Assembly (NCBI GenBank): GCA_034780895.1
Contig: JAUZTB010000076.1
Location: forward strand, 89,281,332 to 89,345,331
Reading direction: 5' to 3'
DNA: 64,000 nucleotides
From: Rhynchobatus australiae
Lineage: Eukaryota
Shown one piece after another: positions 23,689 through 25,095 of the stretch (its first letter is position 1; every line of letters starts with the position of its first letter). Below the pieces are notes generated by a model. The model searched no databases and was not told where the DNA came from. It was given only the letters and a program-made list of their open reading frames with translations. The position numbers and the translations under genes were made by a program.

Positions 23689-24273
23689 TCAAAACAGTAT
23701 AAAAAGTAGAGGGAGAGTTTCTTTTATTTTCTCTTGTAAGCGAGTGGCAGAAACGACACGAAGAACTTCAGCATGAAATACTTGTTGATTTCTGGCTTTA
23801 CATAAATTACAGTCGTAAATGGTGGCAAAAATAGTTACTGGAGATTCACCGCAGCCCTTTCTCATCGCTGAAAATTTCAACAGTACCTTTCTAAACGTAT
23901 CGATTAACGCAAACAAAAATCACTGAAAATTTGGTAGTTAAATACCCCNNNNNNNNNNNNNNNNNNNNNNNNNNNNNNNNNNNNNNNNNNNNNNNNNNNN
24001 NNNNNNNNNNNNNNNNNNNNNNNNNNNNNNNNNNAACATTATCAGCGATGAGCCATTTTGTTATCTACAATTGCAAATTAAATTAAACCGACTCATTATT
24101 CGAAAACATCGGCTCCAAATATCTTCCATAAAAAAGAAACTAAATCTCAAAGACCTTTCAGGTCCACATGTTAATTAAAGTTTCTTCTAAATTAAAAAAA
24201 ATCGTGTCACACATCCTCTGCCGCAGATGAGAAATAATTTTAAGAACAATGATAAAATTTGCCAGCAACCCAC

Positions 24274-24500
24274 CCGTAAATGGAATCTTTATCTCTCTTT
24301 AATGCATCGTTTACTGAGGATCCCATGCTTGGCGGCATTGTATTAGCATGGTTTGTGTGCGGGTATTGGTGACTGTGTAACGGCGGCCCGTGATTGAGGT
24401 GGTGTACGGGCTGCATAGACCTGGGGGCGTGAGGATCACCATACATAGTAGTCGGTATCCCTACTCCATCCATACCACCGTAATGTGAGATTTCATCGTA
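24274..24500 (-). CDS. MEIS1: MEIS1 coding exon 2 (227 bp)
   Basis: CT-rich tract then gtgcag|TAC...; encodes [76 protein letters not shown]; ends GG|gtgggt. RSMQPVHH...HSHQY is the MEIS1 form, not MEIS2. Confidence 0.96.
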
Positions 24501-24750
24501 CTGCACGGCAACAAACAGAGAGAAAGAGAGAGAGAGAGAAAGAAAACGTAAGGGGNNNNNNNNNNCAAACTTAACACTACGAAACGCACCATACAACTTT
24601 ATTCTCGAAGTTCTTGACAGAACAGGGCACACAAAATTACGTGAACGGTTTGCAGAGCCAGTAAGTACCGCGCCGTGCTGTCGAAGCAACCCGCAACTCG
24701 GTTTCATCGCGTTTGGCAATTGTTTTACAAACTGCACCATAAATACTTAC

Positions 24751-24762
24751 CCTCTGCGCCAT
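24751..24762 (-). CDS. MEIS1: MEIS1 coding exon 1 (M-A-Q-R)
   Basis: Minus strand reads gcaggccg-ATG GCG CAG AGG-gtaagt: a 12-nt coding exon with a perfect donor. MAQR is the Meis1/2 N-terminus and joins in frame to exon 2. Confidence 0.95.
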
Positions 24763-25043
24763 CGGCCTGCCTCGAAGCCTTCTCTCTGTGGCACTTTTAG
24801 CTGTACTCTATGGGGCCAATATTAGAAAGGAATAAACACGCCACTCCAAAGCCAGATCAAGATCCTTGTAGTCCTTGTGGATGAGCAGCCCCAGAGTATT
24901 CGGCTTAACTTGGATGCACTCAAGGAAAATATTTCTAATCAGCGAAGATATATGTATATATATCGATATGTAGATATTGTTTTTCACCACAGCAACTCGG
25001 CGGATAGAGAATCTCGTCCCCCAAAAGCGAGCAAAAGCGCCCC

Positions 25044-25067
25044 TCAAACAAAACTGCCGAGTCTCAT
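25044..25067 (-). CDS. Upstream ORF, 7 codons (MRLGSFV*)
   Basis: gcc ATG AGA CTC GGC AGT TTT GTT TGA. It is the only ATG on the minus strand between 25140 and the MEIS1 start. Translation is not demonstrated. Confidence 0.6.
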   Translation of the reverse strand: MRLGSFV

Positions 25068-25085
25068 GGCTTTTTGCCACTCTAG

Positions 25086-25095
25086 CTGTCAATCA
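25086..25095 (-). promoter_or_regulatory. PBX-MEIS/PREP decamer TGATTGACAG
   Basis: Exact match (plus strand ctgtcaatca) within the MEIS1 leader. Confidence 0.7.

Follow-up and report, generated by a model that had tools for sequence, protein, structure and literature searches.

Introduction

In the leader of the MEIS1 gene of Rhynchobatus australiae, a short upstream open reading frame (uORF) of only seven codons (MRLGSFV, followed by TGA) precedes the coding sequence, and the question raised by this locus is whether such an ORF has been kept because ribosomes make use of it, because of the peptide it encodes or because of the DNA in which it is embedded. In the first instance, the matter is one of dosage, since the amount of MEIS1 counts in patterning and haematopoiesis as well as in leukaemia and restless legs syndrome (PMC2707216). 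More generally, if its start has been retained in MEIS1 and its paralogue MEIS2 from the vertebrate duplications on, the ultraconserved block around the uORF would allow DNA-level constraint to be told apart cleanly from RNA-level constraint, and would be a place where 5'-leader variants can be sought. The window analysed here is a stretch of 64,000 nucleotides, to which all positions refer unless stated otherwise. What is attributed below to PMC2707216, PMC3140891, PMC3538684, PMC3581578, PMC3308983, PMC6023610, PMC6547434, PMC7530721, PMC8892498 and PMC10032668 holds for the parts of these sources that were covered.

The uORF and the Leader of Shark MEIS1

The uORF occupies 25044..25067 on the minus strand, where it opens with an ATG at 25067, closes with a TGA at 25046-25044 and is out of frame with the main ORF. 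The gene was assigned to MEIS1 because its exon 2 (24274..24500, minus strand), delineated by protein match and RNA read cover, matches two shark Meis1 proteins at 100% identity and mammalian ones at 87% (among the best 120 of 363 matches). Coding exon 1 (24751..24762, minus strand) encodes MAQR, from the main ATG at 24762 to the GT donor immediately next to it, and is separated from the uORF stop by a spacer of 281 nt free of any ATG (24763..25043, minus strand). Respective to initiation contexts, the uORF ATG (AAAGCC-ATG-A) exhibits a G at -3 and an A at +4, which is suboptimal by the definition of PMC8892498 and recurs with the same two bases in a MEIS2-type leader of metagenomic origin, L067, described below. 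The main ATG (AGGCCG-ATG-G) exhibits a C at -3 and a G at +4; this C was read directly in shark and L067 and deduced from the Pro preceding Met in two further sequences, i.e., P0074 and the lamprey P0078, while in Danionella (P0116) an Ala precedes Met, implying a G at -3, which was counted against a damping role of the uORF. The seven-codon ORF, the purine at -3, the C at -3 of the main ATG and the stop 281 nt before the coding sequence, all claimed in the initial annotation, were confirmed, the strand being the minus one.

From 25330 to 24763 on the minus strand, i.e., 568 nt, the ATG of the uORF is the only one, where a mean of 9.2 would be expected (sd 2.3, P 0.001, 2000 dinucleotide shuffles), so that other upstream ATGs are avoided in this part of the shark leader, and this was counted in favour of damping. 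The shortness of the uORF taken alone is unremarkable, since an ATG would meet a stop within seven codons in about 27% of cases at the composition of this leader. The initial annotation had also presented this ATG as the sole upstream one in about 380 nt, which stands and extends to those 568 nt. Further up, another ATG lies 318 nt above that of the uORF and opens an ORF of 37 codons (25272..25385, minus strand); given this upper ORF, the statement may not hold for the longest transcripts, and the start of the upper ORF may double as a site for a promoter factor. Downstream, in the spliced MEIS1 frame, an out-of-frame ATG is encountered 16 nt past the main ATG at 24762 and opens 11 codons. Met14 of MEIS1 (24473, minus strand) sits in a strong context, with G at both -3 and +4, and leaky scanning down to it, as read from the sequence, could yield a MEIS1 short of 13 residues.

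Transcription of the Leader

Of 23 runs, four, namely X19, X20, X21 and X23, were compared with 24200-25330. From a related species, hereafter species C, 19 (X21) and 32 (X23) raw reads were aligned, spanning exon 2 and the leader with none in 24504-24731, that is, in intron 1; no splice joint rose above threshold. Depth at the uORF reaches about 6 in X23, much as in the leader below it, and about 2 in X21, with the first mate always on the plus strand, which in most stranded libraries denotes minus-strand RNA. That the uORF start lies within the mRNA leader, as initially annotated, is thus borne out both by the species C reads that cover it and by the annotated mouse start some 80 nt above it. 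Between 25005 and 25194, uORF included, no difference is listed between species C and the shark, the rest of the leader showing 12 substitution rows and 2 insertions, several of them in noisy reads or in a TA run. Three species C differences at 24794-24823 occur only in reads carrying 10-12 further differences and perhaps stem from misalignment, from a paralogue or from an allele that has diverged. No contig from X19 was found on 24200-25330, and the metatranscriptome X20 provided a single short contig of 97 nt, matching 25046-25096 only, with 6 differences. At the loose end of this contig, the TGACA block introduced below is diverged yet recognisable, and the source suggested by its sequence is a more distant vertebrate or a paralogue. 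The fall in depth towards 25330 was considered as a mark of the transcription start and rejected, as the read filter can itself produce such dips.

In the mouse, PMC3581578 places the end of one reporter primer at +47 relative to the exon-1 start; this primer matches 25115-25100 at 13 of 16 positions, 10 of them contiguous, which would set the mouse start near 25146 and the uORF ATG near +80, assuming no indels. Several starts are used by mouse Meis1, the majority close to the RefSeq 5' end, and the mouse leader seems, from a primer of the same paper, to hold a second ATG in a poor context (PMC3538684). Another mouse primer, the reverse one used in chromatin immunoprecipitation (ChIP) by PMC2707216, matches 25057-25039 at 15 of 19 positions, a match unique at that quality within the scanned part of the window, and covers codons 4-8, reading Ser-Trp-Val-stop for the Ser-Phe-Val-stop of the shark with the stop in register. 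The putative human MEIS1 leader put forward in the initial annotation agrees with this primer in frame, stop and flank over its last 19 nt, the part that the primer covers. The flank in question, a G-rich run following the uORF stop (25039..25043, minus strand), is identical in mouse MEIS1 and absent from the MEIS2-type leader.

A Conserved Island Around the uORF Start

L067 was retrieved by scanning metagenomes with two motifs situated upstream of the ATG, hence without bias for the ATG itself. At least 120 stretches were returned; among the 120 listed, L067 alone runs on into the shark sequence (score 60 vs. a mean of 13.3, sd 4.9), the other 119 being discarded as chance matches. It corresponds to a vertebrate MEIS leader that is not human, complete with the MAQR of exon 1, and aligns to the window at 25047-25126 and at exon 1 only, the remainder of the leader, above and below, scoring at shuffled level. 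This island (25047..25126, minus strand) comprises 82 aligned columns at 89% identity (E 4e-25), of which the most conserved part, running from a decamer through a spacer to the context of the uORF ATG (25068..25096, minus strand), is identical to L067 at 28 of 29 nt. Compared with this 28/29 from the decamer to the ATG, identity amounts to 24/25 in the upper block and 15/18 over codons 2-7; since it is so high, and higher above the ATG than in the ORF, retention of the ATG would be expected even without translational selection.

The decamer, TGATTGACAG (25086..25095, minus strand), is an exact PBX-MEIS/PREP site 19 nt above the uORF ATG and belongs to the DECA motif class of PBX-PREP/MEIS (PMC6023610). 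It occurs as one exact copy in the 64-kb window, where 0.001 would be expected per 568 nt, and the same motif is present in L067; at one mismatch, 13 matches are found in the window against 6.8 expected. The decamer is likely an autoregulatory site. Next to it stands a TGACA-containing block (25101..25110, minus strand), which falls close to +47 in the mouse transcript as annotated, within the 13/16 primer match, and whose sequence is that of a putative MEIS-type half-site. A conserved octamer on the plus strand (25116..25123), which we take to be of the Capicua-site type, occupies the same place in L067, there being 22 such octamers in the window, and a literature search linking it with this leader returned no paper. 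Used as a DNA query against its own genome, the island matched itself only; both other MEIS loci were found in the Rhynchobatus genome, with exon 1 and the leader consisting of N in each. Scans for the island pattern gave no match in genome contigs nor in viral contigs, and no match was obtained when the antisense frame across the island served as a protein query.

Age of the Start Site

On the minus strand of L067, at 533-583 of that stretch, the island opens a 16-codon ORF, MRHDSLVTCRLLMGRL, in which the position of the shark stop is not a stop. Two human MEIS2 uORFs have been catalogued from Ribo-seq, namely c15riboseqorf11 (16 aa) and c15norep17 (37 aa) (PMC10032668), the comparison resting on 2 of the 6 MEIS rows there. 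By eye, MRHDSLVTCRLLMGRL shares 11 of 16 residues with c15riboseqorf11, from which it differs at positions 2, 6, 10, 13 and 16, with the same length and the stop in place. As for c15norep17, 13 of 20 residues are identical in a 20-codon ORF of L067 and 9 of 20 in the shark upper ORF, the first ten residues of the latter agreeing by eye at 8 with c15norep17 and at 7 with the L067 ORF. The distance from the upper to the lower uORF is 536 nt in human MEIS2, 390 nt in L067 and 318 nt in shark MEIS1. Since both peptide comparisons favour MEIS2, L067 is most likely a MEIS2 leader, on the strength of these two matches; its reading as a fish MEIS1 having lost the stop was overturned by the match to the human MEIS2 uORF. 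Between the two upstream ORFs of L067, around 745-775 (minus strand), a pyrimidine run ending in CAG resembles a splice acceptor, a hint in the sequence of alternative first exons in the MEIS2-type leader. The L067 leader contains 5 ATGs in 535 nt and is not depleted in them (P 0.18), which was counted against damping.

The three vertebrate Meis paralogues date back to two whole-genome duplications (PMC3140891) and, because the island and its ATG are common to MEIS1 and MEIS2, both would predate the split of these paralogues. As judged from the sequences, the uORF start is therefore likely older than the gnathostome ancestor. The conservation since that ancestor proposed in the initial annotation thereby gains support and is probably an underestimate of the age, the stop with its flank being in register between shark and mouse and the start being common to MEIS2. 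By contrast, c15riboseqorf11 is labelled "primatomorpha - young, de novo" (PMC10032668), with which the L067 and shark MEIS1 starts are hard to reconcile, as these sequences argue against a recent origin; this suggests that an ORF of great age can go unnoticed under such a label in a widely consulted table. The sharing of the start site between MEIS1 and MEIS2 is new here: no paper on a MEIS1 uORF or on its sharing with MEIS2 was found in the open literature, searched mostly by title and abstract and with the pairing of MEIS2 and uORF left unsearched, and the table of the ESUCA study (PMC7530721) may hold a MEIS1 uORF. If true, the retention of one uORF start by two paralogues would offer a rare, precisely testable handle on translational dosage control.

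Ribosome Evidence

Because the L067 ORF matches c15riboseqorf11, the homologous MEIS2 start can be considered as catalogued as translated in human (PMC10032668). For MEIS1, no row was present in six supplement files of the same catalogue, including 221 human ORFs of 3-15 aa, in which the control gene MTMR3 was found, and in the RibORF supplement (PMC4739776), where more than 10 reads are demanded of each ORF, the sole MEIS1 entry is a dORF, with no MEIS1 uORF; both lists apply thresholds on reads or quality below which short ORFs can fall. In mouse fibroblasts without DENR, the translation efficiency of Meis1 was unchanged (log2FC 0.05, adjusted P 0.95) in the data covered from PMC6547434, and the supplements of zebrafish 5' UTR libraries contained no meis1 row. 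Taken as a translational control element, as initially annotated, the MEIS1 uORF is plausible.

DNA, Peptide or RNA as the Object of Constraint

The uORF is situated at the 3' margin of a group of transcription factor sites, a competing cause of conservation that the earlier reading overlooked, and these motifs provide an independent reason for constraint, so that a DNA-level cause alone could explain the conservation. According to this explanation, a cluster of transcription factor sites where exon 1 begins is what selection maintains, the ATG and the stop being mere passengers with little effect on the protein. The exact decamer is indeed retained in shark, L067 and mouse, and in mouse P19 cells MEIS1, PBX1 and TORC2 were found by ChIP on the amplicon holding it (PMC2707216). 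Distal elements are the subject of PMC3308983. Moreover, identity between shark and L067 peaks above the ATG and fades across the ORF, 17 of the 18 nt from the decamer to the ATG are kept, which goes beyond what a start context needs, and the two Ribo-seq lists are silent on the MEIS1 uORF in the files covered. Passengers would nonetheless leave unexplained the avoidance of all other ATGs in the shark leader, the cataloguing of the homologous MEIS2 start as translated and the fact that each paralogue has its stop in register across distant species without any frameshift. Constraint on the DNA alone is thus regarded as a possible explanation that is on balance unlikely.

Conversely, the peptide itself could be under selection, in which case a nascent chain of the pattern Met-basic-x-x-Ser-x-Val would slow or stall the ribosomes. 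Ser5 and Val7 recur in all four sequences, i.e., shark MEIS1, the available part of mouse MEIS1, L067 and human MEIS2, Arg or Lys occupies position 2 in each of the three sequences that cover it, the change of the Val codon between shark and mouse is synonymous, and a MEIS2 ORF was picked as a conserved-peptide uORF (CPuORF) by ESUCA (PMC7530721). The codons themselves speak against it: none of the three changes to L067 in codons 2-7 is synonymous and, with the mouse added, two of seven are (one of them assuming the first base of the Gly codon), against a neutral share of 24%, the probability of two or fewer being 0.78 at omega 1, 0.08 at 0.2 and 0.01 at 0.1, in a tiny sample of seven changes that mixes paralogue and orthologue pairs. 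Amino-acid conservation beyond that of the nucleotides, with a Ka/Ks far below 1, by which CPuORFs are recognised, was not observed in this small sample. An alternative frame opening at a near-cognate TTG, in which two of the L067 changes would be synonymous, was discarded, as the mouse primer reads a stop there. Seven residues, besides, barely fill the exit tunnel of the ribosome, which also weighs against any dependence on the peptide. In the mammals, the human MEIS2 ORF c15riboseqorf11 has a PhyloCSF of -25.4, and the other MEIS2 ORF one of -92.8 (PMC10032668); the frameshift test of PMC7530721 included a MEIS2 CPuORF as one of 17 and, in the part covered, the eight named as sequence-dependent do not include it. 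With the paralogous uORFs differing in length as well (7 vs. 16 codons), the peptide dependence entertained in the initial annotation found weak support and is considered very unlikely. Least probable, by a little, is an RNA-level element, i.e., a block maintained because the mRNA leader folds or binds a protein there, irrespective of uORF translation: although it lies inside the transcript and is conserved base by base, no stable fold is predicted (z of +1.9 in shark and +0.07 in L067, with differing structures) and Rfam gives no match at E up to 1.

Proposed Mechanism

On the whole, a slight preference is given to a sequence-independent, leaky and reinitiation-permissive uORF that would damp MEIS1 translation from within a dual-use element. 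This proposal builds on the ORF, its transcript cover, the shared block and the decamer as observed, and borrows the damping itself from the scanning model and the precedent of the Hoxa genes (PMC8892498). Some of the scanning ribosomes would initiate at the uORF AUG, the context of which is intermediate (G at -3, A at +4), while others would scan past it; those initiating would stop after seven codons and then either drop off or reinitiate across the 281-nt ATG-free spacer. As the main AUG is also in an intermediate context (C at -3, G at +4), a modest trimming of the output would be expected, and in the Hoxa cases the effects are of 1.2-2.5-fold (PMC8892498). The output would be predicted to react to how stringently start codons are chosen (eIF1/eIF5), independently of the peptide.

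As regards its history, the start and the surrounding block would already have existed in the ancestral Meis gene ahead of its duplication into MEIS1 and MEIS2, after which the stop would have been fixed separately, at codon 8 in MEIS1 and codon 17 in MEIS2. In parallel, occupancy of the same 80 nt by PBX-MEIS would provide transcriptional autoregulation, as reported in the mouse (PMC2707216). In a broader and rather improbable version, the whole would form a dosage module of two layers predating the duplication, where about 80 nt would combine the PBX-MEIS DNA site with the uORF, a second uORF would stand above, the choice of the transcription start site would set the number of uORFs and the Met-basic-x-x-Ser-x-Val pattern would act in the ribosome. 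Were this module true, the human uORF filed as primate de novo would rank among the oldest uORFs of vertebrates.

Comparison with Known Systems

In ATF4/GCN4, uORF1 is the element permissive for reinitiation, and MEIS1 resembles it in combining a very short ORF with a long spacer behind it (7 codons, 281 nt). In contrast to ATF4/GCN4, shark MEIS1 lacks a second, inhibitory uORF, no other ATG being found in 25066-24763, so that a stress switch of that design is not predicted in the shark. With the MEIS2 CPuORF of ESUCA (PMC7530721), the shark element has in common to be a uORF of a MEIS leader kept across taxa, and differs from the ESUCA CPuORFs by being devoid of an amino-acid-level signature. 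With the human MEIS2 uORFs (PMC10032668), it shares paralogous start sites arranged in the same order and at similar spacing, except that in MEIS1 the stop comes at codon 8, where the ORF of human MEIS2 extends over 16 aa.

The DECA element of mouse Meis1 (PMC2707216) is the same decamer in the same block, and the reverse primer used there sits on the last codons of the uORF; in the sections covered, it is treated as promoter DNA with no mention of a uORF. The exact and conserved decamer that characterises this element is found in the shark.

The closest parallel is offered by the uORFs of Hoxa1, Hoxa9 and Hoxa11 (PMC8892498), which are likewise short and deeply conserved uORFs of homeobox genes, that of Hoxa9 also numbering 7 codons and that of Hoxa11 also exhibiting a suboptimal uORF AUG with a purine at -3 and no G at +4. 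MEIS is mentioned nowhere in the main text of that work as covered, and its supplement includes MEIS in the gene universe only. Compared to the Hox uORFs, that of MEIS1 has a long spacer (281 nt), a start common to paralogues and an adjoining, probably autoregulatory DNA site. Of the conservation of the start between mammalian and fish orthologues that marks the Hox uORFs, what was observed for MEIS is the stop and flank in mouse MEIS1 and the start itself in the MEIS2 paralogues. By analogy, the MEIS1 uORF may work like the conserved Hox uORFs, as a candidate member of that group.
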